Shown here: positions 208 through 24,131 of the stretch, piece by piece
Layout of the letters: every line of letters starts with the position of its first letter
Position numbering within the stretch: the first letter of the stretch is position 1
Assembly (NCBI GenBank): GCA_043818055.1
Contig: JBDRGF010000127.1
Span: forward strand, 1 to 28,227
Length of the DNA: 28,227 nt
Origin: Pseudomonadota bacterium
Lineage (GTDB): Bacteria > UBA10199 > 2-02-FULL-44-16 > JBDRGF01
Reading direction: 5' to 3'
Notes under the pieces: generated by a model
Told to the model about the DNA's origin: nothing
Seen by the model: only the letters and a program-made list of their open reading frames with translations
The model's database searches: none
Translations under genes and position numbers: made by a program

Positions 208-249
208 CGTGAAGCGTGAAGCGCAAAAAAGGCATGCCACATGCGCTTT
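208..249. repeat. Heptamer (CGTGAAG)2 arm after the fdx stop, with short inverted partner
   Basis: cgtgaag cgtgaag cgca ... tgcgctt; same unit as at 13817 and 19597. Confidence 0.6.
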
Positions 250-257
250 CTATTGCA

Positions 258-1229
258 ATGAAAGATACTCTAAAAATCGGCCTTCTATCTTTATCTTCAT
301 GGGCTATCTCAGCTCCATTGGCCGGAATTTCATCGCTTCCATGGCGTGTCTTATTGCATGAGATGGGGGCGTCGCTCACTTTTTCTGAGATGATCAGTTC
401 AGAGGGATTGATACGAAACTGCGCAAAGACAAGGCTCTATTTTGAAAATGTTGATCAGGCCCGTCCCTTTGCCGCACAGATTTTCGGTGCTAATCCAAAG
501 AACTTAGCTTTAGCTGCAAGAATTCTCGATGACGAGCCCCTTGTCGATCTCATAGACATCAACATGGGATGCCCTGTTAAAAAGGTCGTGTCGAGGGGGG
601 CGGGCGCAGCCCTGATGAAAGATCCAATATTAGTATCCAGAATTGTTCAAGAGGTGAGAGGGGCAACCTCCAAACCGCTGACAGTTAAGATTCGTTCGGG
701 ATGGGATGAAAACAATATCAACTATATTGAAATTGGAAGGATTGCAGAATCTCATGGTGCTGATGCGGTGATCTTGCACCCAAGAACCCGAAGCTCTTTT
801 CTTAAAGGCAAATCGGAGTGGAGTCAAATTGGAGAATTGAAAAGCAAGCTCAGCATTCCTGTTATTGGAAATGGCGACATAAAGACAGCAGATGATGCGA
901 TAAGCATGCGATCAGAGACTCTCTGCGATGGAGTGATGATAGGACGTGCAGCTATCGGCAATCCTTGGATATTTAATCAGATTAAGAATGAAAGTTTATC
1001 GTCTCCCGATCAACAAGAAAGAATGAGAGTGATTTTGAGACTCCTTTCGCTCATGAAAGGACATCGATCAGAAAGATACTCCCTCACAAATATGAGAACT
1101 GTCATCCCATGGCATGTCAAAGGGATGAAGGGGGCAAAAGATCTTTTGAGAGAGGTGAACATCACAAAAAATACAGGTGATCTAATAAATTTGCTCTCGG
1201 AGTTTTTTACATTACCGACAACATGTTGA
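258..1229 (+). CDS. dusB: tRNA-dihydrouridine synthase (DusB family)
   Basis: APLAGIS, SEMISS, QIFG, DINMGCP, VKIRSGW, HPRT, IGNGDI, GVMIGR motifs. Start placed at ATG 258 because the ORF extension from 216 is repeat-derived. Confidence 0.92.
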   Translation: MKDTLKIGLLSLSSWAISAPLAGISSLPWRVLLHEMGASLTFSEMISSEGLIRNCAKTRLYFENVDQARPFAAQIFGANPKNLALAARILDDEPLVDLIDINMGCPVKKVVSRGAGAALMKDPILVSRIVQEVRGATSKPLTVKIRSGWDENNINYIEIGRIAESHGADAVILHPRTRSSFLKGKSEWSQIGELKSKLSIPVIGNGDIKTADDAISMRSETLCDGVMIGRAAIGNPWIFNQIKNESLSSPDQQERMRVILRLLSLMKGHRSERYSLTNMRTVIPWHVKGMKGAKDLLREVNITKNTGDLINLLSEFFTLPTTC

Positions 1230-1800
1230 TTAGTGTGGGTAAAGAGAGGCCTATCACATTGGTAAAACATCCTTCGATAGCTTCAACAAAGATGGCTCCC
1301 TTTCCCTGGATCGCATAGCTACCGGCTTTTCCGAATGGTTCCCTCGTCGCAACATACCAATCCACCATATCATCGCTCATATCTATAAATTTTACCCTTG
1401 TCGATACAACCTCGACCATAAGCCTCTCTGAACTTCTGTTCAGAAGCGCAATGCCGCTTACCACATCATGCCATCTGTCAGAGAGTGTGTAGAGCATCCT
1501 CCTCGCATCATCCGCATCAATCGGCTTGCCCATTATAATCTCATCACATACTACCGTCGTATCAACCGTTATGATCAGCGCATTATTGTTTTTCGGCCTG
1601 ATCGATAGGGCCTTCTCCTTTGCAAGTCTCTTGACGTAATCTTCGGGAGACTCTTCCGGATAAATAATCTCGTCGATCTTGGGAAATCTCACGCGGAAGG
1701 GGAGCCCCGTCATCTTCATGAGCTCTCTTCTTGCTTTCGATGAAGTAGCTAAGATTAATGGCCTTTCGATATCCAGCATTCCTTTTAATTCATTAGACAT
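1207..1800 (-). CDS. maf: Maf-family nucleoside triphosphate pyrophosphatase (YhdE-like, dTTP/UTP)
   Basis: LILATSSKARRELM, LAKEKA, DTTV, GKP, KAGSYAIQG, NVIGLSL; overlaps the dusB 3' end by 23 bp (convergent). Confidence 0.93.
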   Translation of the reverse strand: MSNELKGMLDIERPLILATSSKARRELMKMTGLPFRVRFPKIDEIIYPEESPEDYVKRLAKEKALSIRPKNNNALIITVDTTVVCDEIIMGKPIDADDARRMLYTLSDRWHDVVSGIALLNRSSERLMVEVVSTRVKFIDMSDDMVDWYVATREPFGKAGSYAIQGKGAIFVEAIEGCFTNVIGLSLPTLINMLSVM

Positions 1801-1899
1801 GTTAAACCTCCATGAAGATAAAGGGAGTGTATACTAAACCATCCATCAGAAAAATCACTTATTTTGTTTTATTACTTCATATGCTATAAGCCCTATCTT

Positions 1900-2790
1900 A
1901 TGAAGAAAAATAAAAAACAATTAGGCAAGTCTACAAATAAACCGGTAAAGAGACCTCAAACCCCTGCCAAAATAAACGCAAATATTGAGAGTCTAAAATT
2001 TGAGCTTGAGAGACAAAAACACAAGCTCAGATTAGTCAACGAAGAGAAGATCAATTTATATAAAGAGCTTGAAGAGACAAACAAAAAACTTCAAAAGATC
2101 GACCAACTCAAATCGGACTTTGTCTCAATGGTCTCTCATGAGCTTAGAACCCCCCTTGCTAACATAAAGGCCTCTGTGAGTCTTTTAAGGGATGGTATCT
2201 CCGGAGAGGTAAATGAGACACAGCGTACTCATCTGACAATCGCTTCGAACAACATCGACAGGCTCCTGAGGATTATAAACAACCTCCTCGATCTATCAAA
2301 GATAGAAGCCGGAAAACTTGAATTGCATAAAGAGCGTGTTGATCTCAATTTTATCATAAAACAGATCGCGATCTCCTTTGAACCTAAGATCGAAGAGGCT
2401 CATTTAAAGCTGAAAACTCATATGCCAAATACACCAACCGATGTTTTTGCAGACCCGGACAAGATGACTCAGGTCATCACTAATCTCATAAGTAACGCTG
2501 TCAAATTTACACATGAAGGATTTGTCGAAATATCGCTTCGGGAAAAAGGGAACCAGATTGAATGCACTGTTCGTGATACAGGAGTCGGAATAGCTAAAGA
2601 GGATATGCCAAAGCTCTTCAGCAAATTTGAGCAGTTCGGAAAGCCAAAAGTTACCAAAGAAAAAGGGACCGGGTTGGGACTTTCAATAGCCAAAGGTATA
2701 GTCGAAGAACATAAAGGAAAGATGTTTGTAAAAAGCGAACTTGGCAAAGGAACTGAATTTACATTCACACTGCCAAAAAATACCGATTGA
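1900..2790 (+). CDS. Cytoplasmic histidine kinase (coiled coil + HisKA + HATPase_c), no obvious sensor domain
   Basis: H box SHELRTPL, N box QVITNLISNAVKFT, G1 DTGVGI, G2 GTGLGLSI; no TM segment. Start ATG 1900 is inferred. Confidence 0.9.
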   Translation: MKKNKKQLGKSTNKPVKRPQTPAKINANIESLKFELERQKHKLRLVNEEKINLYKELEETNKKLQKIDQLKSDFVSMVSHELRTPLANIKASVSLLRDGISGEVNETQRTHLTIASNNIDRLLRIINNLLDLSKIEAGKLELHKERVDLNFIIKQIAISFEPKIEEAHLKLKTHMPNTPTDVFADPDKMTQVITNLISNAVKFTHEGFVEISLREKGNQIECTVRDTGVGIAKEDMPKLFSKFEQFGKPKVTKEKGTGLGLSIAKGIVEEHKGKMFVKSELGKGTEFTFTLPKNTD

Positions 2791-2862
2791 TCCTTATGAA
2801 TTTCCGACAGTTTTGAAAATTCTCAATGTATATGACCGATTCGTCAAATGTCGATAATCGAA

Positions 2863-2906
2863 ATTTCTAAACTTACGCACTTAAACACTTCTACACTCAA
2901 ACACTT
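2863..2906. repeat. Octamer tandem array (ACTTAAAC/ACTTCTAC family) directly after the aclA stop
   Basis: atttctaa acttacgc acttaaac acttctac actcaaac actt; same family as 18504, 19115 and 19653. Confidence 0.8.
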
Positions 2907-2908
2907 GT

Positions 2909-4735
2909 TCACTCCGTCATATAAGCAATCTCATCATACGGTGTTCTGTAGAGAGGTTGTTTGAGGCGCTTCTGGTCGAAGATGTGACCGATGATTCCGA
3001 TCGAGCGGCCGATGACGAATAGGGCGTTCAGACAGCCAAGTTCGATGATCTCGTCGACCTCTTTCCTGGTAAAGAGGTCACAGCTCTTTAGAAGATCGAC
3101 GAAGCATATGCCGATGCATCCATCGACATTCAAAATCAGATTTCCCTTTTTGGAAGTTGTCAGTGCTTCGACCTCTAAAGCATAATCGAGAAGCTCAGTT
3201 TTTGGAAAATGTTTTCTGCAGAATTTCTTGAGCTGTGTCACGCGCATGTCGGGGTTGGTGACGCTCTTCACAAGATGTCCGATGCCCGGGATGTTGATGC
3301 CCTTCACCTTCATATCCTTTACAAAATCGGCCGGCTTCATTTTTGATTCAATCGCACGTTTGAAATTTCTCGCGGCATCATCGATAGCACCTCCGAAACG
3401 AGGACCTATGGTAAGAAGTCCTGAGACGAGTGCAGAGATGACATCCTTGCCAGCCCTTGCCGTAACAATAGCGTTGTGCGCGCCGGAGACGGCTGGACCG
3501 TGATCTGCTGTAAGCACCAAAGCCAATTCCAGAAATTTTCTAGCATATTCGGGAAGTTCCTTTTTAAACCACAAAAGTCCGATCACGCCTCCAATGCCGA
3601 TCTCGCTCTCGATTACTTTCGAAATCGGAACTTTGCTATATTCGAGTTCTTCCTTTCTGTCGTTTGATATCGTGGTGATAAATGTTGCCGGCTTTCTGAT
3701 CTTTCCCTCTTTAACAGCCTGTGCATAGTCCATAGGGAAATTGGGGGAGACGTTATCCTCAACGGAACTTACTAGTCCCTGTTTAGTCAGTCTGGTAAAA
3801 ACCTTCTTCACCTCTTCACCATAGTCGTCGAATGAGTTTGGTACGATAGCGCCGGCATCTTTTAAAGCCTTGTTCTTGGCTTCAGCCGTTTCTAAATCAC
3901 TTCCCGCCTTAGCGCCGGCATGACCGAATTGAACACCAGCAGGAAACATTTTCGAACATGTTCCCGTCACCCAGATGACTAGCGGCTTGGTTATCCTTCC
4001 ATCTTTGAGCGCATCGACTATTTTAAGTTCATCAGTTCCGCCGATCTCTCCCAACGCTGCTATCATCTTAACATCGTCGATCGCTTCGTATCTCATTATG
4101 TGCTCGATGAGCGTCGAACCCGGATAGGCATCCCCTCCGATTGCGATCCCTTCGTATAAACCGTCGCTGTTTCGGGCTATGATGTTATAGCATTCGTTCG
4201 ACAAACCGCCCGACTTTGAAACAAAGCCGACCGATCCGGGACGATGTAGTTTTGATTCGATGATGTTATCAATCGTGCCGGCGGTGTTTCCAACTTTAAA
4301 ACAGCCGGCCTTTATGCCTCCAACCGTCGCCGGTCCTATGATCATCTTATCCTGTTCTTTGGCTGTTGCTGCGAGGATACGTGCCTTTCTCTCCGGAACA
4401 CCCTCAGCTATGATGGCCACAGTCTTTATATTTGGATTGGCAAGGGCTTCCATGCTTGTAGGATACGCGCTTCTGAAAGATGAAAAATTCACAAGCACAT
4501 CTGCTGATGTATGATTATCGCTTGCCTCTTTGAGCGTCCTGTACATAGGAATTAAAATTTCCTTCTGGCCATAGAATGCCTTATGAAACCCTTCACGCGT
4601 CGGATTGACGATGGCTGCCACCGATGGCGTCAACCTTCCACAGACAAAATCGAAATCAAGCATGCGCTGAATAGCGTTCTGCTGATAGCCATAAACGATC
4701 GATGTTGTATCCTTTGTAAAAAGTTCCGCCTTCAT
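2909..4735 (-). CDS. aclA: ATP-citrate lyase large subunit (CoA-binding, phospho-His and citryl-CoA lyase domains)
   Basis: QRMLDFD, IIAEGVPE, IGPATVGG, VSKSGG, QFGHAGA (catalytic His), DHGPAVSGAHN, GPRFGGA, PGIGH, LNVDG; 608 aa. Confidence 0.96.
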   Translation of the reverse strand: MKAELFTKDTTSIVYGYQQNAIQRMLDFDFVCGRLTPSVAAIVNPTREGFHKAFYGQKEILIPMYRTLKEASDNHTSADVLVNFSSFRSAYPTSMEALANPNIKTVAIIAEGVPERKARILAATAKEQDKMIIGPATVGGIKAGCFKVGNTAGTIDNIIESKLHRPGSVGFVSKSGGLSNECYNIIARNSDGLYEGIAIGGDAYPGSTLIEHIMRYEAIDDVKMIAALGEIGGTDELKIVDALKDGRITKPLVIWVTGTCSKMFPAGVQFGHAGAKAGSDLETAEAKNKALKDAGAIVPNSFDDYGEEVKKVFTRLTKQGLVSSVEDNVSPNFPMDYAQAVKEGKIRKPATFITTISNDRKEELEYSKVPISKVIESEIGIGGVIGLLWFKKELPEYARKFLELALVLTADHGPAVSGAHNAIVTARAGKDVISALVSGLLTIGPRFGGAIDDAARNFKRAIESKMKPADFVKDMKVKGINIPGIGHLVKSVTNPDMRVTQLKKFCRKHFPKTELLDYALEVEALTTSKKGNLILNVDGCIGICFVDLLKSCDLFTRKEVDEIIELGCLNALFVIGRSIGIIGHIFDQKRLKQPLYRTPYDEIAYMTE

Positions 4736-4753
4736 ATAACCTCCGTAAAAAAC

Positions 4754-4837
4754 CGTATCGCGTTAATCGTGATACGGATAACGTCCAAGGAAAATAATAA
4801 GATAAAACCTTTAACGTTTCACGAACAACGCTTCACG
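4754..4837. repeat. Degenerate inverted heptamer element between aclB and aclA
   Basis: CGT recurs every 7 nt at 4754-4788 and ACG every 7 nt at 4814-4837 (cttcacg abuts the aclB stop). Includes a hairpin, ccgtatcgcg-ttaat-cgtgatacgg, at 4753-4777. Confidence 0.6.
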
Positions 4838-6100
4838 TTATTTAAGCGCCATCGAAACTATCTTCGTCATATGCGTCTCGGGGCCATAGACCTCTATAGG
4901 AACGCCAAGTGTCTCTCCTAGCTTTCTTATTTTCTGTAGCCCCTCCTGATAATTTGGGCCGCCTCGACGCACATAGATCTTAACCTTGTGTTCTATTAAC
5001 TTGTCCTTAAATTCATTTAGTGCCTGAATTATACCTGTGAAGGTCTTTGCTACATCCGTGAAGTTAGCAATTCCACCGCCGATCAATAAAAATTTTCCCT
5101 TTGGATCCTTTTCACGCGTCATCAGATCCAAAACTGTCTTTGCATATTGATAGGTCTCTTCGGTTGTGGGATTGCCCGAATACTCCCCGTAATTTGCGAG
5201 TTCCTTTGAAAATCCGATATCGCAAACCGTGTCGGCATAGATGACGGAAGCCCCTCCACCAGCTACCATCGACCAGATTCTGCCTTTTGGATTTAGTATC
5301 GTGAGTTTCAATGAAGAGCCGCTCTTCTCATCGAGTCCCTTTATGAACTCTTCCTCTGGTGCATGAGATGTTCCAAATGATGCTGGAAAATCGATCTTTC
5401 CCCAGATTTGCGAGCATTCGAACTGGGCGGTGTCGTCGAGTTTTGCAACCATATCGAGAGGGACTATGTCATCACCCCAGAATGTGAAGGGGTTTATTTC
5501 GAGATAAGAAAAACCTGCGTTTGCATACATCTTATGAAGTCCCATGAGAAAGGAAATCACGTTATCCTTTCTGTTTCCAAGATTTTTAAGATGACTTTCA
5601 AAGTCGACCTTTTCAACGGGCTCCAAAATGGAAACTGGAATCTGTACGACCTGATCCCAGTTCTCTTCGACGTAGATTCCACCCTTTGTCGAAAAATAAA
5701 TTATATCCCTCTCCCGCTCTGAACGAATAGCGACAAACCATTCATCATCTTCGGCATGTTTAAAAAATGGTTCAATGAGAAAGTGAGTGAGTGTTCCTTT
5801 TGTCTCACCGACTGTGACTTCCTGATTCATGCGCTCATAGGTCCAGTCCCACGCATCTTTCCAATTTGCATTGAGGCAGAGGAGTTTGTGTTTGCCGCGT
5901 TTTCCGAAGAGCTGATCCGGCTTAACTACGAGTTTTTCCTCCTCAAGCCATGGATGCGTTTTTACCAACTCTTTAGGGTCGGTATCCGGCGTGACAAGCG
6001 CTAGTTTGGGTTTGTCGCTTTTAAAAGCCTTTGTGTAGAGAGGAAGCTGTTCGAACAGAATCCTCTTTGCGTCGTATTCTCTGATACCTCGTTGGGCCAT
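4838..6100 (-). CDS. aclB: ATP-citrate lyase small subunit (ATP-grasp + citrate-binding domain)
   Basis: GIREYDAK, VVKPDQLFGKRGK, YLEINP, KLDDTA, MVAGGGASVIYAD, NYGEYSG, GGGIANFT, VRRGGPNYQEGL, GPETHMT; GGAGG RBS. Confidence 0.96.
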   Translation of the reverse strand: MAQRGIREYDAKRILFEQLPLYTKAFKSDKPKLALVTPDTDPKELVKTHPWLEEEKLVVKPDQLFGKRGKHKLLCLNANWKDAWDWTYERMNQEVTVGETKGTLTHFLIEPFFKHAEDDEWFVAIRSERERDIIYFSTKGGIYVEENWDQVVQIPVSILEPVEKVDFESHLKNLGNRKDNVISFLMGLHKMYANAGFSYLEINPFTFWGDDIVPLDMVAKLDDTAQFECSQIWGKIDFPASFGTSHAPEEEFIKGLDEKSGSSLKLTILNPKGRIWSMVAGGGASVIYADTVCDIGFSKELANYGEYSGNPTTEETYQYAKTVLDLMTREKDPKGKFLLIGGGIANFTDVAKTFTGIIQALNEFKDKLIEHKVKIYVRRGGPNYQEGLQKIRKLGETLGVPIEVYGPETHMTKIVSMALK

Positions 6101-6112
6101 ATTTCCTCCGGA

Positions 6113-6174
6113 AGTTTACAGTTTACAGCTAGCAAAAATAATTTCTTATAACTGTGAACTGATAACTGTAAACT
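6113..6174. repeat. Inverted heptamer element (AGTTTAC / GTAAACT) between icd and aclB
   Basis: agtttac agtttac agctagc ... ataact gtgaact gataact gtaaact. Confidence 0.8.
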
Positions 6175-6177
6175 TTT

Positions 6178-7374
6178 TTACAATCTCTGCGCGACCTCAT
6201 CAATAAATTCCTCGGTGTTCACATGTTTGTTTGTCGAAGGTGTTAGCAGGGGGGAGAGATCCTTCGTGACTATGTTGTTTTCTATACAATCAATAACTGC
6301 TCTTTCAAGCTTGTCAGCGAATTCCACGACTTTAGGCGTATCGTCCAGTTCGCCGCGCTTTTTGATGGCGCCGCTCCAGGCGAAGATCGAAGCTACGGAA
6401 TTTGTGCTTGTGGCATTTCCCTTCAGATGTTCGTAATAGTGGCGACGGACAGTGCCGTGGGCCGCTTCATATTCGAATTTGCCGTCGGGGGATACGAGTA
6501 CCGATGTCATCATGCCTAAGCTTCCGAATCCAGCTGCGACCATATCCGAGAAGACATCTCCATCGTAATTCTTGCACGCCCACAGGATACCACCTTCGTG
6601 TTTCATGATCTGCGCGACCGCGTCGTCAATCAACAGATAACGATAGCTGATGCCTGCCTCGTCCATCTCTTTTTTACGGCTTTCAACCTCTTTGCCGAAG
6701 ACATCCTTGAAATGAGCATGATATTTCTTGCTGATAGTATCTTTCGCGCCAAACCAGAGATTCACTTTTTCAGAGAGGGCATAATTTACGCAGGCCTTTG
6801 CAAATGAGCGGATGGATTTGTCGGTGTTGTGAATTCCCATGACTATTCCATCCCCTTTGAACTCGTGGATGGTCATTCGAATTTCCTGATCGCCGCTCGT
6901 TGGCGTAAAGAGTATCTCGGCCTTGCCGGGCTGAGTTACGACCATCTCGACGCTCTTATATAGATCGCCATATGCGTGACGGCCGATGGTGATCGGCTTC
7001 TTCCAGCTGCGGACAGCGGGAACGATATTTTTTACCATGATCGGTTTTCTGAATACCGTGCCATCCAATATCGCACGGATAGTGCCATTAGGGGATTTCC
7101 ATTGTTGTTTTAGATTATACTCCTTCACGCGATCGGCGTCGGGAGTAATCGTAGCGCATTTCACTCCTACGCCATGTTCCTGAATTGCATGAGCCGCGTC
7201 GCTAGTGATCTGATCATCTGTCGCGTCTCGTTTTGTGACGCTCAAATCGAAATACTTTAGATCGACATCGAGGTGGGGAAGGATCAACTTTTGTTTGATC
7301 ATCTCCCAGATGATCCGGGTCATCTCATCGCCATCCATCTCGACAATCGGGTTTTTAACCTTGATCTTTGACAT
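6178..7374 (-). CDS. icd: NADP-dependent isocitrate dehydrogenase (type II homodimeric)
   Basis: [52 protein letters not shown]. Confidence 0.96.
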
Positions 7375-7395
7375 GAAAATTCCTCCAATTTTTAG

Positions 7396-7448
7396 AGCGT
7401 ATAGCGGGTAGCGTATAGAAAAACCTATGCGCTCTACGCTATCCGCTA
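7396..7448. repeat. Inverted heptamer element (AGCGTAT family) between acn and icd; overlaps the acn TAG stop
   Basis: agcgtat agcgggt agcgtat ag ... ctatgc gctctac gctatcc gcta. Confidence 0.8.
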
Positions 7449-9377
7449 TTCTACCGTGTAGTTGAGCAACCCTCCAGAGAGCACAATCTTCTTCTGCCTG
7501 TCGGAGAGTTGATATTCACACTCAATTGTCTCGCCTGATCTTTCATTCTTAATCTGCACAAGCTTTCCTTCAGCTATCAAACTCTTCCAGTCTGACGAAC
7601 TCAACTTGTCGCCCTGTTCCACCTTCTCATAGTCGGCTGCATTTTTGAAAGTGAGCGGCAGTATACCGAAGTTGATCAGGTTTGCGGCATGAATCCTTTC
7701 AAATGATTTTGCCACAACGGCCTTCACCCCCAGATACATCGGGCAGAGTGCGGCGTGTTCGCGGCTAGAACCCTGTCCATAAGATTCTCCGGCCACTATT
7801 ATATTCTGTTTGTTGTTCTTTTTATTCTCCATGCAGCGTTTTGGAAATGTGCTATCGACATTTTCGAAGACGAATTCAGAATATTTAGGCACATTCGAAC
7901 GATATTTGAGCCTTGCGCCAGCTGGCATGATGTGGTCGGTCGTGATCTTATCGCCGACCTTTATCATAACCTCTCCTGTCAAAGCATCTGCCATCGCAGA
8001 GTTTCTCGGAGGTTCGCCGATATTTGGACCGCGTTCAATCTCAACCGGGCCTTTGACATCCTTTGGAAAGATGAACATAGAATCATCTATGAAAAAATGC
8101 TTGAGCATTTTGAACTTCGGATATTCCATTCCCAGCTCTCTCGGATCAGTTATCTCTCCTTTGATTGCAGCCGCTGCTGCGACTTCAACGCTTGTGAGAT
8201 AAACATCGGCATCTTTCGTTCCGCTTCGCCCCTCAAAATTTCTGTTCGATGTTCTGATGGAAACTCCTTTGGACTTCGGAGAGAAGCTGTTGCCGATGCA
8301 AAAGCCGCAAGTGCTCTCCAAAAGCCGCGCGCCGCTGCTGAGCATCGTGAGTAAAGCGCTCTCCTTTGTAATCATCTGCAGCACCTGTCTGGAGCCGGGA
8401 GCGACTCCAAGGCTGACATCCGGATGAACCTTTTTGTCCTTCAGAATTTCAGCGGCCGTCATCATATCCTTGAACGACGAGTTGGTGCATGAGCCTATGC
8501 AGACCTGATCGACTTTAAGCCCTTTTAGTTCCGAGATCTTTTTTACATTGCCGGGGCTGTGTGGCGTTGCTGCCATAGGTTCTATAGTGCTAAGATCGAG
8601 ATCGATCACACGGTCGTATTCCGCGTCGGCATCGGCCTTGACCTCGACCCAGTCATCCTCTCTCCCCTGAGCCTTTAGAAAATCCTTTGTAATATGATCC
8701 GATGGAAAGATCGATGTAGTCACCCCCATCTCGGCGCCCATGTTGGTTATCGTCGCGCGTTCCGGCACGGAAAGGGTGACAACGCCGGGACCTGCATATT
8801 CGATTATCACACCGACATTCCCCTTGGTGGTTAGCATCTCGAGCATTTTTAAGACTACATCTTTGGCCGATATCCAGTCATTCAGCTTTCCGGTGAGGTT
8901 GACCTTATAGACCTTCGGCGCTGTGAGGTAAAAATTGCCGCCGCCCATTGCAACCGCTACATCGAGGCCACCAGCGCCGATGGCTATCTGTCCGATGCCG
9001 CCTCCTGTTGGGGTGTGGCTATCGCTTCCAAGCAGCGTAGTACCCGGCTTTCCAAAGCGCTCCAGATGCACCTGATGGCATATGCCGTTGCCCGCGCGTG
9101 AAAAGATTATTCCATATTTTGCCGCAACCGATTGCAGATAGCGATGGTCATCGGAGTTTTCAAACCCGACCTGAATGGTGTTGTGATCGACGTAAGACAC
9201 TGAAATGTCTGTTTTTATTTCGGTAAGGCCCAGCGCTTCGAATTGAAGATATGCCATGGTGCCGGTCGCATCCTGTGTTAGCGTCTGATCGATGCGTATT
9301 CCAACTTCGCTTCCCGCCTTGAGCTTACCCTCTTTTAGATGGGCATCTAGAAGCTTCATCACAATATTCTTACCCAT
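7446..9377 (-). CDS. acn: Aconitate hydratase (~640 aa single-chain type)
   Basis: [52 protein letters not shown]; adjacent to icd. Confidence 0.93.
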
Positions 9378-9600
9378 GGACCCCCCTACTGTGACAGTTT
9401 ATTTATAATATTTCCACTAGTGAAACTCACCCCTGATGTGAATTGTCAATCCACGCTCAGGGGTTAGTTTGTTAGGCCTACTCATATTATCATCTGCATT
9501 TTTTGTCTATACCTTTTGTTGATGTGGTGTGAATATGTGGAAAATTGAAAAAGTCTAGACCTGATTTTTTACAGCTCTTGTGGAAAATGTGGGCTATTTC

Positions 9601-11073: not shown

Positions 11074-11084
11074 AGAGAAAAAAA

Positions 11085-11483
11085 TTATTTACCGCTCTGT
11101 TCAACATTTCTGAGCGGCACGCTAAAAAAACCATTCTCATTTTTAAATATGACCCTGTTCTCTTCTATCTCAACCACCTCATTGAATCCTATGCTCTCGC
11201 CCTCTCTCACCACCTGATTATTGACGAGAGCTGCTGAATCATCTTTGCTATAGACGATTCCTGTGAGAGCGAGTTCGTTAACAGCGACATCGTCAACCGG
11301 TTGAACAAAGGGATTGTTTCTCCATATCATCTTGTCTCCTGTTATCTCCTCAAAACCCTGAGTGTTTAAACCGGAAAGCGGTTTCCCCTGAGCTTCTTGA
11401 GCATTGAGATTGAAGGAGGCAAAAAGGCAGATGATCACAACGATAATTTTCAAGAGAGCGTTATATGACAACCTATTGCTCAT
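11085..11483 (-). CDS. PilP/MshK/GspC-like exported pilus assembly protein
   Basis: Signal peptide, RNNPF motif, LTGIVYS...ALVNNQVVREGESI beta domain; directly upstream of the secretin. Confidence 0.7.
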   Translation of the reverse strand: MSNRLSYNALLKIIVVIICLFASFNLNAQEAQGKPLSGLNTQGFEEITGDKMIWRNNPFVQPVDDVAVNELALTGIVYSKDDSAALVNNQVVREGESIGFNEVVEIEENRVIFKNENGFFSVPLRNVEQSGK

Positions 11484-11496
11484 AATCTGGCACCCC

Positions 11497-12666: not shown

Positions 12667-12679
12667 AAAATAATCAAAA

Positions 12680-12768
12680 GCGCATGTAGCATGTAGTATG
12701 TGGCATGTGGGCAAAAATTTGCTTGAAGGGTTTTTTACTACATACTACATGCCACATGCTACATACGC
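12680..12768. repeat. Inverted heptamer element (CATGTAG/CATGTGG), 31-bp arms, between pilM and pilN
   Basis: gcgcatgtagcatgtagtatgtggcatgtgg ... ctacatactacatgccacatgctacatacgc; the six arm mismatches are all transitions. Confidence 0.9.
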
Positions 12769-12778
12769 CTTTCTCTTT

Positions 12779-13801: not shown

Positions 13802-13816
13802 ATAAAAACCGTCGTT

Positions 13817-13893
13817 CGTGAAGCGTAAAGCGTGCAACGTAAAACGCAAAAAAATATTCACGCGCTTCACGCTTCACGGGCGGACGCTTCACG
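13817..13893. repeat. Inverted heptamer element (CGTGAAG / CTTCACG) between the TPR gene and pilM
   Basis: cgtgaag cgtaaag cgtgcaa cgtaaaa cgc ... cttcacg cttcacg ggcggacg cttcacg. Confidence 0.88.
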
Positions 13894-13898
13894 TTCTT

Positions 13899-14909: not shown

Positions 14910-14921
14910 TCCATGAACCCC

Positions 14922-15800: not shown

Positions 15801-15816
15801 GATTCCCCTCGCTCAG

Positions 15817-15874
15817 GTAGGGGCAACCCCCTGTGGTTGCCCTTTTACGGGCGGCCACGGGGGGCCGCCCCTAC
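15817..15874. repeat. GTAG-family REP doublet (inverted pair)
   Basis: GTAG-GGGCAACC-ccctgt-GGTTGCCC and, inverted, GTAG-GGGCGGCC-ccccgt-GGCCGCCC, with compensatory stem changes. Confidence 0.85.
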
Positions 15875-15982
15875 AAAGCTCTTAAGGCCCAAACATACCA
15901 CAATTTCAGAACATGAAAAAGGAAATTATTTATCGGGAAGTCGTTAAAGAACTTTGATTTCAAGGGGATGGAGAAGAGAGAA

Positions 15983-17923
15983 TCATCCGTCAGGCGGTGT
16001 GAAGTTGCCTGTCGATTTTGTCGATCCATCACTCATTATGAAGGTGATGTTGAACGTGCGCCCGCTCATATCGGAGTTGAAACGAATACGGGTTATCGGG
16101 CGAGTTTGCGATGCTGAAAGGGTCACATTAGAGATGTTCAGATTTGATCCTGAACTTGCGCTGCCAGTCCAGACGTTAGAGTTGGAGACACGTATAACAC
16201 TGAGTGTACGGGATGGTGATGTCGGTGTCCAGCTGACTATAACCCTGTCCCAGGTGATCGTTGATGATCCAGTGTTGGTTATTGTTATTCCTCGCAAATC
16301 CTTATCGCTCCCCCCCCCAATGTTTGCACCAGAGATGTCAACCGAAAGAAAATCGGCCTGTGTTGAGGAGGTGGGTGTAAATGTAACAGATTTAGTCGTG
16401 CCATCCGACATCGTAAATTCCAATGTGAATTCTAATCCAGGTGTAATCGTATTATTAAAACCCAGACTGGTGATATCCCTGGCGCCATCCCCATCTCTCA
16501 AATAAATTCCGTTATCACCAAAGGAGACGAGCGTCCCACTGGAGGCATTGCTCGAATAGGTGTTGGAACCATCTGTATCCTCAATAATGCTCTGTTGTAG
16601 GCGCCTGCCGCCTTCACCGCTCCACGACATGGTGAGGCCGGTCATGCCGATATCCGCTGCACAGGTGTTTTCTATGGTAAGGCCGAGGATGTTCGTGCCG
16701 CTTGCTACAGCAGAACTTGTATCGATGGTTAAACAGTTCTGTTGACTGGCATTGAAGAGATCGAGCGATGTCGCTTTAGATGTGCCATCGACAAATGTCC
16801 ATATGATCGAATAGTTGCGTCCCAGCATATCTGCGTCAAACGCAAAGTAATTTGCTGTATAGGTCGATGAAGCCGCGTAGAGGTCGTTGCTAATATCTAT
16901 TAGCACACCGCTTCCTGCAGAACCGCCATAAATATTCGTCCCATCTATTCTAACAGTGTTCAGATTGCTTGATGGCGATGTAGGCGTCCAGCTGACTGTC
17001 ATCTTGTCAAGAATGATAGCTTCAGCACATGTGTTTTGGACTGTAGTCCCTGTCAATTGGCTCCAAAGGCTGCTATTCCATGTGAGCCTTGCACTTCCCG
17101 TATTCCATTGAAAACATGCAGCCTGATTATCGGCCAGAAAATTCACATCGACAACCTTTTCGTAATCGGAGCCATCATATGTGTAATGAAAGTGGAGTGT
17201 AAAATTGTGATCAGACATGTTCGTACTCCACCTGATGTCTGTTATATTATGAGCTGCAAAATCGTTGATGGTGTAATTGTTTGAAAAATTGACGCTTCCA
17301 CCGGATGCGGCTGACCCTGAAAATTCGGTAGGGTTACCTGCTATCCTGACGCGGACTAAACCCTCGCCAAGATCGGGCTCCCATGTCGTTCCTGACATTG
17401 CTGTGATAGTGAGAGGAAGAGAGCAGCTCGCATCCCTGCTCAGGGTTAAACCCTCCAACTCCCTGTTCGAAATGCCGGCACCAGTGGTATCGACATTCAG
17501 GCAATCGCCTGATGGAGGATTTGGATCGTTGATCTCAACTAAACTCCTCGCGTTCTGCTCAGCAGATGAAACATTAATTTTTCCAGCCGTCCTTGTGATA
17601 TTGACAGTCTCGCCGGAGAACTCTCTCGAAACTGAACTCCCCGACCAGCCATCGGTGATAATCTGCCCGAGCGCAAATTCCATGCCGAACTGAGATGAAT
17701 AAAAGGCCTGATCCCCTGTGACCTGCTGGATTCTCAACTGCTGATTGTATGATGAAAAATATGCGATGCCGAGACCCAAAGCGCCAAGCACAAATACAGC
17801 GATAATGGCAGCGATGACGGCAAAACCGGGCGCGCTATGTGCTATGCGCCATGCGTTGTGCGTTGAATGGGCTTTTCTGTTCAGCGTAGTTTCTAGAAAA
17901 AGTATTTTAAAAAATAACCTCAT
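15983..17923 (-). CDS. PilX/MshP-like minor pilin fused to four ~125-aa beta-rich repeats (putative tip adhesin)
   Basis: G|FAVIAAIIAVFVLGALG (no Glu5), QAFYSSQFGMEFAL PilX-like motif, four internal repeats. Start ATG 17923 is inferred. Confidence 0.72.
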   Translation of the reverse strand: MRLFFKILFLETTLNRKAHSTHNAWRIAHSAPGFAVIAAIIAVFVLGALGLGIAYFSSYNQQLRIQQVTGDQAFYSSQFGMEFALGQIITDGWSGSSVSREFSGETVNITRTAGKINVSSAEQNARSLVEINDPNPPSGDCLNVDTTGAGISNRELEGLTLSRDASCSLPLTITAMSGTTWEPDLGEGLVRVRIAGNPTEFSGSAASGGSVNFSNNYTINDFAAHNITDIRWSTNMSDHNFTLHFHYTYDGSDYEKVVDVNFLADNQAACFQWNTGSARLTWNSSLWSQLTGTTVQNTCAEAIILDKMTVSWTPTSPSSNLNTVRIDGTNIYGGSAGSGVLIDISNDLYAASSTYTANYFAFDADMLGRNYSIIWTFVDGTSKATSLDLFNASQQNCLTIDTSSAVASGTNILGLTIENTCAADIGMTGLTMSWSGEGGRRLQQSIIEDTDGSNTYSSNASSGTLVSFGDNGIYLRDGDGARDITSLGFNNTITPGLEFTLEFTMSDGTTKSVTFTPTSSTQADFLSVDISGANIGGGSDKDLRGITITNTGSSTITWDRVIVSWTPTSPSRTLSVIRVSNSNVWTGSASSGSNLNISNVTLSASQTRPITRIRFNSDMSGRTFNITFIMSDGSTKSTGNFTPPDG

Positions 17924-17973
17924 AATTTTTAATCTCAAGGCGCAAAGCTCACAACGCATAGCTCATAGCGCAC
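17830..17973. repeat. Inverted heptamer element (GCTATGC family), 33-bp arms enclosing the start codon of the PilX-like gene
   Basis: gcgcgctatgtgctatgcgccatgcgttgtgcg (17830-17862) pairs with cgcaaagctcacaacgcatagctcatagcgcac (17941-17973). Confidence 0.85.
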
Positions 17974-18513
17974 TTATTGAAATCCTGCATACGCGCTTGA
18001 AAATGGGCGGGGGAAGATCTGATTCCTCACACGCACAGCGCCGTAGCCGGTTCCTGCGCCGACAACCAGCTCAAAACCGATTCTTCTTATATCTGCCTGA
18101 GATCCTGCTGTGTTTCCATCCTGATTCAGATATGTGAAGGCGAGAGAGGAAATTCCGCTCGCCAATACGACGCCGCTCCTCTCGAGGTTTGTCCCGTTCA
18201 ATGAATAGTTGATATTATTTTCAGTAGGAAGATCGAACTGAACGACAGATGCCGTCCATGTATCGATTGAAGCGGTCGCAGGGATGAGTAAAATTTCAGC
18301 CCCCATCCTCTCCATGGCAAGGCGCGCCTGGGCTAGAGCAGCCTTTTGTCTCACCGCTAACGCGTATTGCCTGACACCTGATGAAATCACAGGACCAAGG
18401 AGTCCGGCAAGAATGCCGACGACAGCGATCGCCAGCACCATCTCGACGATGGTGAAACCAGAAAAGCCGTGAAGCTTTGAATACTCGTTTTTTCTTTTTA
18501 TTAACTTAAACAC
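17974..18513 (-). CDS. Minor pilin (MshO/PilW-like)
   Basis: G|FTIVEMVLAIAVVGILAG, ARLAMERMGAEI; start GTG 18513 behind AGGAG. Confidence 0.85.
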   Translation of the reverse strand: MFKLIKRKNEYSKLHGFSGFTIVEMVLAIAVVGILAGLLGPVISSGVRQYALAVRQKAALAQARLAMERMGAEILLIPATASIDTWTASVVQFDLPTENNINYSLNGTNLERSGVVLASGISSLAFTYLNQDGNTAGSQADIRRIGFELVVGAGTGYGAVRVRNQIFPRPFSSAYAGFQ

Positions 18514-18538
18514 TTCTACACTCCTACACTTAAACACT
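18504..18538. repeat. Octamer array containing AGGAG RBS and GTG start (copy 1)
   Basis: acttaaac acttctac actcctac acttaaac act. Confidence 0.88.
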
Positions 18539-18542
18539 GCTT

Positions 18543-19124
18543 TTATGGCATTACATATTCCGCAATCAACGTCTCGAGCTTTACGCTCTCGGTTGCGCCA
18601 CTCCAGCTCACAACAGTTGTAACCCTTGCATATCCGGAGCCTGGCGCTGGATCCAGAAAATCATCGGTGCTGTTATCGTCATCAGGGTCAACTTCCAGTA
18701 TAGTCACGTTTCTTGTGTATGCGCTGAAATTTCCGGGGAGCTGTCCATCGGAGTAACCCCCGGCGTTTGCAATCACGTAGGCGTATCCCTTGTTTGCCCT
18801 ATCTGCTATAACTTGTTCGAGTTTCTCCTTTGCAAGATTCGAGGCGACGACTGTTTCGTTAGCGACAAGTGAAGATCTCGCTCCGCCGCTGAAGACAAAC
18901 ATAATACCAATAAGCCCCACACCGACGATCGCAAGCGCGAGTATGGCTTCGAGGAGGGAAAGACCGGAAACGCCGTGAAACGCTTGCCCCGTCGAATGAC
19001 TTGGGGTGAAGCGTGAAGCGCTTGCCCCGCCGAATGGCTTGGGGTGAAGCGTTGAGAACCTGTTTTTTATTAACTTAAACACTTCTAAACTTCTACACTT
19101 AAACACTGTTTTTAACTTAAACAC
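18543..19124 (-). CDS. Minor pilin (MshD/PilV-like) with 54-aa repeat-derived leader
   Basis: G|LSLLEAILALAIVGVGL, ASNLAKEKLEQV, VTTVVSW; start GTG 19124 behind AGGAG. Confidence 0.85.
   Translation of the reverse strand: MFKLKTVFKCRSLEVFKLIKNRFSTLHPKPFGGASASRFTPSHSTGQAFHGVSGLSLLEAILALAIVGVGLIGIMFVFSGGARSSLVANETVVASNLAKEKLEQVIADRANKGYAYVIANAGGYSDGQLPGNFSAYTRNVTILEVDPDDDNSTDDFLDPAPGSGYARVTTVVSWSGATESVKLETLIAEYVMP
18975..19051. repeat. (GTGAAGC)4 array carrying two 24-bp hairpin inserts, inside the prepilin leader
   Basis: gtgaaac g[cttgccccgtcgaatgacttgggg]tgaagc gtgaagc g[cttgccccgccgaatggcttgggg]tgaagc. Confidence 0.9.
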
Positions 19125-19139
19125 TTCTACACTCCTACA
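19073..19139. repeat. Double octamer array containing AGGAG RBS and GTG start (copy 2)
   Basis: acttaaac acttctaa acttctac acttaaac actgttttta acttaaac acttctac actcctac a. Confidence 0.88.
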
Positions 19140-19140
19140 T

Positions 19141-19662
19141 TTATTGTATCGCCACCCGCCCTGTGACGGCGGTTACGGAGATTGTTTTGGTCAGCGAGCC
19201 GTCGGTGATCTGGACGCTGCCCCCACCTCCTGTAGTGGGAGCACCCAGTGAATTGAATTCGACGGTGTAATCGCCGCCTGTTATCGAAACACCGGGCCAT
19301 TTTGGAAAGGTCTCTATCAGATTTTCTTTATCGAGAGGGCTTTGTACCGGAGTTCCGACTGTAGTTTCATAGACCGTATATCTGTCATTAGCGTCATCGA
19401 AAAAGACGCCAAACGTCGTACCCCGCTTTGTCATCGCGAGGCTTCTCGCATGTTCGATATCCGAGCGCACCTTCTCCGAGGCTATCACTACATATGACTC
19501 TTTGATATTGTATATTTTACTGATTGCAGCAACAGCGAGAATGCCGATGAGCGCAATTACAAGTACGAGCTCGATGAGGGTAAAGCCGAAAATGCCGTGA
19601 AGCGTGAAGCGTGAAGCGTGAAGCGTCGAGCGCCTGTTCTTCCTTTTTACTGACTTAAACAC
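19141..19662 (-). CDS. Minor pilin (MshC/FimT/GspH-like)
   Basis: G|FTLIELVLVIALIGILAV, SDIEHARSLAM, FNSLGAP, ISVTAVTGRV; start GTG 19662 behind AGGAG. Confidence 0.88.
   Translation of the reverse strand: MFKSVKRKNRRSTLHASRFTLHGIFGFTLIELVLVIALIGILAVAAISKIYNIKESYVVIASEKVRSDIEHARSLAMTKRGTTFGVFFDDANDRYTVYETTVGTPVQSPLDKENLIETFPKWPGVSITGGDYTVEFNSLGAPTTGGGGSVQITDGSLTKTISVTAVTGRVAIQ
19597..19631. repeat. Perfect (GTGAAGC)4 plus one degenerate unit, inside the prepilin leader
   Basis: gtgaagc x4 (19597-19624) then gtcgagc; encodes STLHASRFTLH. Confidence 0.92.
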
Positions 19663-19679
19663 TTCTACACTCCTACACT
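19653..19679. repeat. Octamer array containing AGGAG RBS and GTG start (copy 3)
   Basis: acttaaac acttctac actcctac act. Confidence 0.88.
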
Positions 19680-19686
19680 GCTTTTA

Positions 19687-20109
19687 TCATCCACAAGTTG
19701 CTGCGACATATGCGAATGTTCCACTCGCGGTGCTGTATTGATAGTATGAGTTGTCTCCGCCGTCGGTGTACTGATAGCAATCGGCGTCCACCTTGGTCCA
19801 ACCTCTTGTAACTCCACCTTTGACGATTGTGCTGAAGCACTGATTCGCCTGAGAACATGCCGTTGCGTCGGCAACAGCATCGAGGGTTGCCGGATATGAC
19901 TCGGCATTTCCTTGCGAAATCTGTGATGCAGCATATAGGGATAGACCTGTCTGCACCGCGCCTACGACTGCGTCGCGCGCATTGGTCCTCGCGGTTGTAA
20001 GACTGATGTTGAAGATGTTGGGAAGTGCTGCGACAGCCAATATTCCCAAGAGTGCGATCACTAAAACAAGTTCGATCAATGTAAAACCCTTTGTGCTTCT
20101 GAGATTCAT
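19687..20109 (-). CDS. Probable major type IVa pilin (MshA-like), 140 aa
   Basis: MNLRSTKG|FTLIELVLVIALLGILAVAALP; strong AAGGAGG RBS; four Cys in the head domain; first of the pilin series. Confidence 0.88.
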   Translation of the reverse strand: MNLRSTKGFTLIELVLVIALLGILAVAALPNIFNISLTTARTNARDAVVGAVQTGLSLYAASQISQGNAESYPATLDAVADATACSQANQCFSTIVKGGVTRGWTKVDADCYQYTDGGDNSYYQYSTASGTFAYVAATCG

Positions 20110-20915: not shown

Positions 20916-20943
20916 GCGGGCGGTTCGCGAACCGCGCCCCTAC
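20916..20943 (-). repeat. Single GTAG-type REP
   Basis: The minus strand reads GTAG-GGGC-GCGGTTCGCGAACCGC-CCGC, 3 nt after the pilC stop. Confidence 0.7.
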
Positions 20944-22164: not shown

Positions 22165-22170
22165 ACTTTT

Positions 22171-23865
22171 TTATTCTTCCAGAATTCTCAACACTTCGTC
22201 GGCTGTTGTGATTCCAGCCTTAACCTTTTCAATTCCATCTTCGAGCATGCTATGAAAATCTGTTTTCTCCACCTTTTCCCTGATAACGGCCTCGGTGACA
22301 TTTTTTTCTATGGAGCTTCTTATATCATCATTGATATCCAGAATCTCAAAAAGGCCAACGCGTCCATAGTAGCCGGTCTTATGGCATTTTTTACAGCCTT
22401 GTCCTTTATAGGATTTAAAGTTGTTATGCTTTTCTGAAACATATTTCAGTATTTCCCGCGATGGCTCGATCTCGATCTTGCAATCCTGACAGATTCTTCG
22501 TGCAAGCCTCTGGGCCATGACACCAATGATGCCCGTAGAGATCAGGTATGGTTCAATTCCTAAATCCTTGAGCCTCACGATCGCCCCGATAGAGCTGTTT
22601 GTGTGGAGAGTTGAAAAGACTAAGTGTCCGGTCATAGCAGCCTGCAAAGCGAGTTCCGCCGTTTCATGGTCGCGAATCTCTCCGACCATTATCACATCGG
22701 GATCCTGTCGCAGCATCGATCTTAAAGAGGAAGCAAATGTCATACCCGCCTTCACATTCACCTGTTGTTGGTCGATACCTATTATTTCGTGCTCGATAGG
22801 ATCTTCCACGGAAAGGATATGCTTGTCCCTTGAGTTTATCTGCATGAGAGCCCCATAAAGGGTGGTACTCTTTCCTGAGCCGGTAGGGCCGGTGACGAGA
22901 AAAATGCCATGTGGTTTCTTGATCAGAGTTTCAAATTTTTTCATGTCATCTTTGACAAAGCCCATATCTTCGAGCTTTAGCAACTGATCCTTGCTCAGGA
23001 GACGTATGGCGACAGCCTCTCCAAACATCGTAGGATAGGTCGCGATTCTCATGTCGAGCTCTTTCCCCTGAATCCGAACCCTGATCCTTCCATCCTGAGG
23101 CAGACGACGCTCAGCGACATCCATATTGCCCATGATCTTCACGCGGGATACGATAGGAAGGTGCATCTCCTTTGGCAGCGATTGGATATCCTCAAGTATT
23201 CCATCTATTCTGAACCTTATCCTCAACGAACTTCTGCTCGGTTCAAGATGTATGTCGCTCGCCCTGTCTTCAAACGCCCTTGAGATGACATTGTTGACAG
23301 TCGTCACTATCTTTTCTCCCGAAGCTGCTTTTTGCAGATTTTCTACCGGAGCATCATCTGTTGGCTCGTTGTCCAAAGATCCTACTATTTCAACCTTTGG
23401 AGCGGCATCTGCTTCGGTCAGGCTGATTCCCCTGTAGTTTTCTCTGATAGCCCTGTCTATATCAGTCGCTAATGCAAAAATTGGGGTTACCTCGCATCCG
23501 ATCGCTGCGCGTATATCATCCAATGCTGTGAGATCGAGAGGATTGGCCATTGCGATAGTCACCTTATCTTCGATTTTAAAAAGGGGAATAGCACTATGGC
23601 TCTTTGCAACTGATAAGGGTAGGAGGCCTACAACATCGACATCTGCCTTGTATTTGGAGAGCGAGACAAAGGATGTGTTCATCCTTTTGGAGATGATCTT
23701 CAGGAGCTCATCTTCGCTCACAAGATTCTCGCTGATCAAAACCTCTTCCAGCGGACGCCCTGTAGATTTATGAATCTCTCTGGCCTTATTTAACTCCTCA
23801 AGGCTCAAAAGCCCTTCCTCTATAAGGATGGCTTCTATGTCATATGGACCGTGTTCAAATTCCAT
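22171..23865 (-). CDS. pilB: PilB/GspE/MshE extension ATPase
   Basis: ASDIHLEP, RRLPQDGR, Walker A GPTGSGKST, VEDPIE, LRQDPDVIMVGEIRD, TGHLVFSTLHTN, Cys4 zinc motif. Confidence 0.96.
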   Translation of the reverse strand: MEFEHGPYDIEAILIEEGLLSLEELNKAREIHKSTGRPLEEVLISENLVSEDELLKIISKRMNTSFVSLSKYKADVDVVGLLPLSVAKSHSAIPLFKIEDKVTIAMANPLDLTALDDIRAAIGCEVTPIFALATDIDRAIRENYRGISLTEADAAPKVEIVGSLDNEPTDDAPVENLQKAASGEKIVTTVNNVISRAFEDRASDIHLEPSRSSLRIRFRIDGILEDIQSLPKEMHLPIVSRVKIMGNMDVAERRLPQDGRIRVRIQGKELDMRIATYPTMFGEAVAIRLLSKDQLLKLEDMGFVKDDMKKFETLIKKPHGIFLVTGPTGSGKSTTLYGALMQINSRDKHILSVEDPIEHEIIGIDQQQVNVKAGMTFASSLRSMLRQDPDVIMVGEIRDHETAELALQAAMTGHLVFSTLHTNSSIGAIVRLKDLGIEPYLISTGIIGVMAQRLARRICQDCKIEIEPSREILKYVSEKHNNFKSYKGQGCKKCHKTGYYGRVGLFEILDINDDIRSSIEKNVTEAVIREKVEKTDFHSMLEDGIEKVKAGITTADEVLRILEE

Positions 23866-23884
23866 TTAAAACCTCATAAAACAA

Positions 23885-24131
23885 CGTATGTAGTATATGG
23901 CATATAGTATATGGTCAAAAGCTTATTTAACGAATTTTTACCATATACTATATGGGCACCTCTAAAAACCTCTAATTTTATCCTATGGTGTCATTGCGAG
24001 GAGCCCTTAGGGCGACGTGGCAATCCAGGGTTTATAAGCATTACCCCGAGATCGCCACGCCTCCATCCAGGAGGCTCGCGATGACAAACTGGAGGTTTTT
24101 AGAGGTGCCCATATGCCATATGCTATATACG
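23885..24131. repeat. Inverted heptamer element (TATATGG/CATATAG family) whose right arm is split by a MITE
   Basis: Left arm 23885-23914; the right arm rebuilt from 23941-23953 + 24115-24131 matches it at 28/30. Confidence 0.88.
23954..24110. mobile_element. 157-bp MITE with 19-bp perfect terminal inverted repeats and ATAT target duplication
   Basis: GGGCACCTCTAAAAACCTC ... GAGGTTTTTAGAGGTGCCC; ATAT at 23950-23953 and 24111-24114; internal palindromic element tgtcattgcgag...ctcgcgatgaca (23989-24086). Confidence 0.9.

Follow-up and report, generated by a model that had tools for sequence, protein, structure and literature searches.

The arrays of 7- and 8-nucleotide repeats that follow twelve gene ends in a 28,227-nucleotide stretch of the Pseudomonadota genome GCA_043818055.1 (contig JBDRGF010000127.1; the entire stretch is called the window below) can be explained as arms that pair within small palindromic elements, which form several families dispersed behind the 3' ends of protein and tRNA genes. 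With moderate confidence, we interpret these elements as likely gene-less copies of cassettes encoding four-helix-bundle proteins of family PF05635, each element family likely being maintained by a cognate protein that is predicted to bind its repeat units. A preliminary description of the window had offered, as one possible origin of the arrays, a mobile unit that leaves its footprints at gene ends, and had mentioned similar arrays flanking four-helix-bundle genes. Both suggestions gained support from the rest of the genome, where five PF05635 loci carry arms and four of them have arms of families found in the window.

Two of the five PF05635 loci are intact, one has a premature stop, one is cut by a contig end, and one is internally deleted. 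Inverted arrays bracket four of them, and the fifth, at the contig end, shows a right arm. Each locus has one arm family of its own (AGCGKWK, RGYATRT, CGTGAAG, an octamer, and AGAAGYM), and the first four are families of the window, where they occur at acn-icd (AGCGKWK), past pilM and the response regulator gene (RGYATRT), at fdx, aclB, and the TPR gene (CGTGAAG), and as octamer arms. The arms at the acn stop are nearly identical to those of the cassette at C33:41124-41471, the element past pilM is of the same family as the cassette at C10:11129-11494, and the hairpin between the TPR gene and pilM shares its family with the cassette end at C76:31238. For the intact C10 protein, PDB entry 2GSC (XCC0516 of Xanthomonas, 5 chains) is a match with an E value of 5.6e-25. 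In the genome's cassettes the PF05635 open reading frame (ORF) lies inside an inverted heptamer stem, and the copies in the window have no such ORF. Paired arms separated by at most 900 nt had PF05635 genes, a GxxExxY remnant, and unassigned ORFs between them; transposase genes were not among these. Other small genes have dispersed arm families of their own: the GxxExxY gene remnant lies between inverted CGCAGAGR arms (C105:416-611), and a DUF559 gene lies between CCCTTCCCCC hairpins (C73:10807-11286).

The arrays are real, are present genome-wide, and exceed chance. Gene positions came from our own simple caller (2566 genes, not validated), on which all stop-relative counts depend. The whole genome holds 486 arrays of period 7 and 147 of period 8, versus 27, 80, and 72 of periods 5, 10, and 11, and the family patterns gave 474 matches versus 13 with codon shuffling. 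Most of the merged arrays (429 of 632) are intergenic, an excess like that of the Xanthomonas and Nostoc repeats, and 164 inverted array pairs were counted. Starts of period-7 arrays cluster 0 to 19 nt past stop codons (142 arrays), compared with 1 to 5 per 10-nt bin at 30 to 100 nt inside gene ends. This peak is restricted to periods 7 and 8; the genome scan did not find it for periods 6, 9, 10, or 11. Spacers of 40 to 400 nt contained arrays in 59 of 181 cases when convergent, 190 of 881 when co-directional, and 33 of 228 when divergent. Paired elements in co-directional spacers (n = 102) lie at a median of 6 nt from the stop and 16 nt from the next start, and where elements had free room, 17 of 28 were within 20 nt of the stop (7.0 expected). 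At least eight arm families, octamers included, account for the arrays, with 12 to 198 arm matches per family.

Stop-proximal heptamers, aligned in phase, share R-G-Y-R-T-D-W, and each family follows a strict grammar, which contradicts the early view that the arrays have architecture rather than sequence in common. Of 96 spacers that held a left and a right arm, 86 had both from a single family (31.7 expected); among 254 spacers with arm matches, none had the right arm before the left. In the largest family, four RGYATRT repeats are followed by a loop of about 31 nt and then by four repeats in inverted orientation; its left flanks are A-rich and its right flanks T-rich. Its 4+4 template is fitted by 22 elements, all of 82 to 86 nt and 14 of exactly 85 nt, and a profile search returned 192 matches, partial ones included. 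When we scored a middle unit flanked by two perfect units (n = 122), four positions were near-invariant (G 119, A 114, T 113, and T 112), and R (64A/54G) and Y (88C/31T) varied almost entirely by transitions. The loop center was only 43% identical among 10 copies, with frequent transversions. Near-invariant unit positions beside a drifting loop indicate that the units are under sequence constraint. Watson-Crick pairing over the 22 elements (481 versus 457 shuffled, p 0.02) showed an excess that appears to stem from subfamily composition (GT or AT type) and not from the R and Y positions. In the families counted here, the common units lack GGG and G-tracts, so a quadruplex is not expected.

The stop-proximal arm had been described as the G-richer strand of the transcript. 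The composition was confirmed, with G exceeding C in 186 of 236 stop-proximal arrays (C exceeding G in 43, with 7 ties) against an all-gene background of 1319:970:271, and the first arm past the stop was left-type 184 times and right-type 19 times. The implied transcript signal was not, because a left arm-loop-right arm palindrome reads the same on both strands, which makes the G-rich arm coming first a property of the element; the orientation of 10 copies was 6 with and 4 against transcription.

Anchoring to stop codons as such was also too narrow a description. In the same scan, arrays start within 30 nt of the 3' end of 6 of 46 tRNA and tmRNA genes (about 10 by eye), a rate no lower than that of protein genes (236 arrays for 2566 genes). 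The AGTGYDT family, with 9 of its 30 matches beside tRNAs, is also present in the rRNA spacer. Translation termination is thus not required; what the sites share is a transcribed unit's 3' edge. Inside the 23S gene we found no array of period 6 to 9 and no heptamer-armed insert. Its 740-nt excess was considered as an intervening sequence (IVS) and ruled out, being a group I intron with an endonuclease-like ORF (C126:31286-about 31990) that is presumably of the LAGLIDADG type. A group II intron fragment lies behind the 5S gene (C126:33346-33516).

To compare units with proteins, we entered 133 four-helix-bundle loci, of which 128 distinct ones were scored and 117 with arms were used for arm similarity. 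Both arms were present in 88 of the 128, and the median was 4.7 units per arm. Arm similarity exceeded 0.4 in 54% of pairs at 60 to 70% protein identity, versus 1 to 3% of pairs below 50%; the Mantel p of 0.001 for the 117 loci is overstated, since related loci do not count as independent. Of the 19 proteins in the C10 clade, which spans Omnitrophota, Atribacterota, Syntrophorhabdus, and Planctomycetota, 13 had at least three GYATDT units at their loci; none of the 109 others did. The C76 and C159 proteins are sisters of relatives' proteins that have the same units. As judged from these sequence comparisons, the unit follows the protein tree across phyla, which shows long co-inheritance, not recognition. 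A plasmid search returned 43 records, mostly cyanobacterial four-helix-bundle genes.

The genome is the sole member of its family, and comparisons were made with order-level relatives. The pattern RGYRTDW x3, searched in 41 genomes, gave 114 matches in this genome, against 27, 7, and 7 for three of the relatives and 0 to 3 elsewhere; it was too family-specific for a co-occurrence test, and unit-free periodicity was used instead. Long period-7 arrays, sampled in about 100 kb per genome (28 kb only for G022), numbered 3 to 12 in all six relatives with PF05635, and none were found in five of the six without it. Orthologous junctions had been suggested as a place to look for empty sites, and some were found, with other junctions holding unrelated hairpins or an ordinary spacer. 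At acn-icd, five relatives showed a CCCTCTCCC-type hairpin (G001 and G008), a GTCATCGCGAG-type hairpin (G016), an empty spacer of 20 to 25 nt (G018), or an ordinary spacer (G010), and the icd-aclB spacer is short, 10 to 25 nt, in G001 and G018. Other hairpins or empty spacers at the same junctions indicate that junction content is exchangeable. In five relatives (G004, G017, G011, G020, and G019; loci L054-L058) we also detected two PF05635 genes arranged head to head in many copies per genome, with a perfect hairpin of about 100 nt between them, ribosome-binding sites at both of its ends, and no heptamer arms upstream.

We speculate that a five-subunit ring of the Avd or XCC0516 type would read about four to five units of an arm, likeliest on an RNA hairpin. 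This suggestion draws on the grammar of the units, on their median number per arm (4.7), and on the analogy with the Avd pentamer, for which the accessible part of a preprint describes five protomers contacting one stem-loop, with flipped-out bases in the crevices between protomers (bioRxiv 10.1101/2023.10.23.563531). If only copies with intact units were copied, the grammar would be kept while the loops drift. Copying would leave no target duplication and would need a helper outside the cassette; both cognate-protein binding and the copying route are inferred. Survival would account, at least in part, for the position behind 3' ends, where an element spares promoters and ribosome-binding sites; targeting is the alternative, and the data do not separate the two. 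Chimeric junctions, in which two families meet, could have arisen by deletion or gene shuffling between elements. A broader proposal, which we regard as possible but doubtful, is that PF05635 proteins are the sequence-reading pentamers of a widespread selfish system, in which each clade would recognize its own 7- to 8-nt unit, roughly one per subunit, and drive copying of its cassette and of gene-less miniatures to the 3' ends of genes and tRNAs.

Several observations weigh against gene-less copies maintained by cognate PF05635 proteins. In 96 kb of genome G001 (95% complete), 6 long arrays are present, and no PF05635/TIGR02436 gene was found in this genome; a weak TIGR02436 match that we considered as a candidate is an unrelated gene, which we take to be adenosyltransferase-like. 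At least three families of the present genome (AGTGYDT, AGCTRTA, and AGTTWC) have no cognate gene that we could find, the genome being 93.6% complete. The cassettes carry no enzyme gene, and we know of no catalytic activity for PF05635. The C33:41124 protein has no close relative (best 54%), and its unit match is weak. Plain co-inheritance would give the same agreement between unit and tree, and the kin are not independent. With strict patterns, 156 of the 254 spacers have one arm type alone. The R and Y positions are non-compensatory (51 G-U and 42 A-C in the 22 elements), so strict pairing is not the selected property. Contigs of four sequencing runs showed no joint that deletes an element, as an empty allele in the same strain would. 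A joint at 4696-4853 in the X6 contigs was rejected because it likely belongs to another organism, and a metagenome scan with icd returned only homologues of 58 to 63% identity and no close strain. RNA-library contigs cross 5724-6434 and 17809-18426 unbroken; the run in question has coverage in 28 of 30 bins, and carry-over of DNA is possible.

The main rival holds that the host selects the hairpins as RNA signals (RNase III sites, 3'-end stabilizers, or partial terminators), which slippage and gene conversion spread, the four-helix-bundle gene being a passenger between two arms. We consider this unlikely, though it deserves serious attention. Location is what such a hypothesis predicts, since the elements lie where 3' RNA signals lie, and arrays without the gene in G001 also fit it. 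U-tails are enriched about threefold (26 of 102 co-directional elements versus a background of 7.6%), and G-U exceeds A-C on the transcribed strand (102 versus 71, p 0.02), but this excess is weak in the best family (51:42), and a coding-strand C-to-T bias can produce it. The accessible text on the Coxiella IVS further reports RNase III cleavage of its stem at the first of the heptamers (PMC4990558). Against a host signal, relatives have an empty spacer or an unrelated hairpin at the same junction, the fixed size and related loops indicate copying of whole units, orientation is indifferent to transcription (6:4), and the hypothesis leaves one gene clade per unit unexplained.

An explanation by classical DNA elements appears improbable to us. 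MITEs (miniature inverted-repeat transposable elements) and repetitive extragenic palindromic (REP) sequences with their REP-associated tyrosine transposases (RAYTs) are short, noncoding, palindromic, multicopy, and extragenic, and autonomous and gene-less versions share their ends. Under this hypothesis a host transposase, of the insertion sequence (IS) or HUH/RAYT type, would move the elements in trans, and the heptamers would be subterminal binding sites. Here, too, families are of fixed size, multicopy, noncoding, and inverted at their ends, and the genome encodes two Y1 transposases. REP-like GTAGGGGC hairpins, seen in the window at 15817-15874 and 20918-20943, have 297 motif matches genome-wide, 84 of them within -10 to 30 nt of a stop, which shows that a second family occupies the same niche. 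Neither Y1 gene is flanked by heptamer arms, however; the full-length versions carry PF05635 instead of a transposase, and the arms are made of periodic units. Target-site duplication was not detected either, direct repeats of at least 5 nt occurring at 5.8% of 137 elements versus 8.3% shuffled, whereas a 157-bp element nested in one of the arrays has one. HUH enzymes leave no target duplication.

Retro-copying, in which an Avd-like ring would pass the RNA hairpin to a reverse transcriptase (RT) as in diversity-generating retroelements (DGRs), strikes us as slightly less probable still. Avd is presumably related in fold to PF05635, two RT genes are present (C30 and C109), and sites behind transcribed units are compatible with an RNA route. 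The Avd pentamer, according to the part of the preprint available, binds a stem-loop and works with an RT. Both RT genes lack flanking arms and are on contigs other than those of the cassettes, which differs from the arrangement of a DGR, and one of them looks like that of a group II intron. The loops show no A bias and hence no adenine-specific mutagenesis (consensus kept at A 65/90, T 78/120, G 46/60, and C 29/40), and orientation is indifferent to host transcription. Ordinary U-tailed intrinsic terminators with incidentally periodic stems are highly improbable. They would be possible for the quarter of co-directional elements that have a U-tail, and the flanks of the largest family (A-rich on the left, T-rich on the right) fit them. 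A U-tail is absent, however, from 76 of the 102 elements, 67 of the 102 stop 25 nt or less before the following start codon and leave no promoter room, and stems of 25 to 40 bp follow a strict unit grammar. A terminator scan of positions 1-20000 gave 21 sites versus 19.2 shuffled and listed none of the full hairpins, most of which its loop limit of 8 nt excludes. The nonrandom placement expected by the preliminary description is borne out, and most of the elements are not U-tailed.

Within the window, arrays were read in transcript orientation at every gene end (Table 1), and the gene labels agree with NCBIfam wherever a family matched. All twelve arrays were recovered at the distances first given: 1 nt past the stop of fdx, 2 for aclA, 0 for aclB, 3 for icd, on the TAG of acn, 10 for pilM, 5 for the TPR gene, 0, 4, 1, and 7 for the pilins, and 10 for the response regulator. 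The claim that a complementary arm usually follows was overstated. Six of the twelve form full hairpins (icd, acn, pilM, TPR, pilin 17974, and response regulator; z -3.8 to -12), four are chimeras (fdx and three pilins; z +0.3 to -2.0), and two are partnerless (aclA, z +0.1; aclB, z -1.1).

Table 1. Repeat arrays and nested element in the window, by position
Positions	Strand	Location	Feature
208..249	+	fdx-dusB	Chimera: CGTGAAG left arm (208-223), ACATGCY right arm (232-249)
2871..2906	-	2 nt past aclA stop	Single octamer left arm, AGTGTWKR; convergent spacer, partnerless
4811..4837	-	Directly past aclB stop	CGTGAAG-family left arm; matching right arm not found
6112..6175	-	icd-aclB spacer	Complete hairpin filling the spacer, AGTTWC-type heptamers; z -4.3
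7396..7449	-	Overlapping acn stop	Complete hairpin, AGCGKWK family; z -3.8
12676..12772	-	Past pilM	Canonical fixed-size element: 4 RGYATRT, 31-nt loop, 4 inverted; z -7.5
13808..13893	-	Between TPR gene and pilM	Complete CGTGAAG-family hairpin; z -5.3
17832..17972	-	Pilin 17974	GCTATGM-type hairpin, left arm 17940-17972, right arm 17832-17865; z -4.4
18469..18538	-	Pilin	Chimera: octamer left arm with Shine-Dalgarno (SD) sequence and GTG start (18513); remnant ACGCTTC right arm in leader
18974..19139	-	Pilin	Chimera: doubled octamer left arm with SD and GTG (19124)
19596..19682	-	Pilin	Chimera: octamer left arm with SD and start 19662; four ACGCTTC units in 26-residue leader
23880..24132	-	Response regulator	RGYATRT element: 3 units, insert, 1 unit, loop, 4 inverted units
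23954..24110	.	Within the response-regulator element	157-bp miniature element, terminal inverted repeats, 4-bp target duplication (ATAT)

At the pilins, elements have been absorbed into gene expression. In three pilin genes the octamer arm supplies an SD-like sequence with a GTG start 7 nt later and so serves as ribosome-binding site and start, and right arms are translated as leaders of 19 to 54 residues before the cleavage motif, compared with 8 in an array-free pilin. The GCTATGM-type hairpin has start codon candidates in arm and loop, and its right arm is in frame in a prepilin-like leader. The pilin at 18974..19139 has a 38-nt duplication with ACGCTTC units inside a leader of 40 to 54 residues, and position 19662 is the only in-frame ATG, GTG, or TTG start of the pilin at 19596..19682. 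The three junctions have one chimeric layout, likely through duplication; a single 5' module would have been duplicated and tolerated since the leader is cleaved off.

The 157-bp miniature element interrupts the response-regulator heptamer element and is therefore younger. Miniature elements of 131 to 157 bp with terminal inverted repeats were seen at this site and on C32, C6, C22, and C68, with a 4-bp duplication in three of these copies (window, C32, and C22). Each contains a hairpin of the GTCATT/C type, and heptamer-type arms surround four of the five. Elsewhere in the window, a degenerate short arm (27640-27661) directly follows the stop at 27662, and a 15-nt tandem repeat (27525-27558) lies upstream of a 462-amino-acid gene without an NCBIfam match. 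The acn-icd-aclB-aclA cluster (2909-9377) has the same order in G001 and G018. Its two-subunit ATP-citrate-lyase-like pair, a label that comes from the preliminary description, matches succinyl-CoA ligase and citryl-CoA lyase domains. A short hairpin with perfect ends and a T6 tail (4753-4777, minus strand) lies in the aclB-aclA gap, 11 nt upstream of the aclA start; it is a terminator-like signal within a likely operon. A search of the window against Rfam gave four matches, all far below gathering score.

Heptamer arrays have been described before. In the part of Rehm et al. 2015 available to us (PMC4692102), intergenic arrays, mostly of about four units, are reported for Xanthomonas (GGGAATC) and Nostoc (GGGGA(C/T)T), with 70 to 75 inverted pairs per Xanthomonas genome and the G-rich strand 0 to 50 bp past stops on the coding strand and before starts on the noncoding strand. 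That accessible text reports no link between the arrays and mobile elements and contains neither of the terms S23 and xcc0516. The period-7 excess, the inverted pairs, and the G-rich arm behind the stop recur here, but those genomes have one unit each, whereas ours has at least eight families, octamers among them, without G-tracts. The Coxiella 23S IVS, according to the available part of its description, has an inverted stem around an S23p/PF05635 ORF, heptamers before the start, and variation in heptamer copy number (PMC4990558). The cassettes of the present genome resemble it in having a heptamer-bearing inverted stem around a four-helix-bundle ORF and differ in that they and their gene-less copies lie between protein and tRNA genes, not in an rRNA helix. 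Units at icd-aclB are within one base of the TAACTGA repeats of Beggiatoaceae, read on the other strand; such repeats form intergenic runs at gene boundaries in Beggiatoaceae, cyanobacteria, and Bacteroidetes and are described in the accessible text as direct repeats before starts, a single inverted case excepted, that are not linked to any cargo gene (MacGregor 2015, PMC4679880). We found no literature linking dispersed arrays to PF05635 genes outside rRNA in a search that covered subscription journals thinly. Inverted heptamer pairs behind stops (Xanthomonas and Nostoc) and heptamers before S23p (Coxiella) are thus already published; our additions are the match of one family to one gene within a genome, the measured unit grammar, the tree signal, and the tRNA-end sites.

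Heptamer repeats are overrepresented in many bacteria, with no accepted cause (Mrazek et al. 2007, as cited in the accessible part of PMC4679880). The association described here ties these unexplained 7-base repeats to PF05635, a very large orphan family that lacks a function, and five protein-unit pairs in one genome open the question of recognition to direct cross-binding comparison. If the broader proposal were true, one genome would host many protein-repeat pairs in parallel, the long-noted bacterial heptamer excess would have a source, and the PF05635 proteins would constitute a natural library of repeat-specific nucleic-acid binders.

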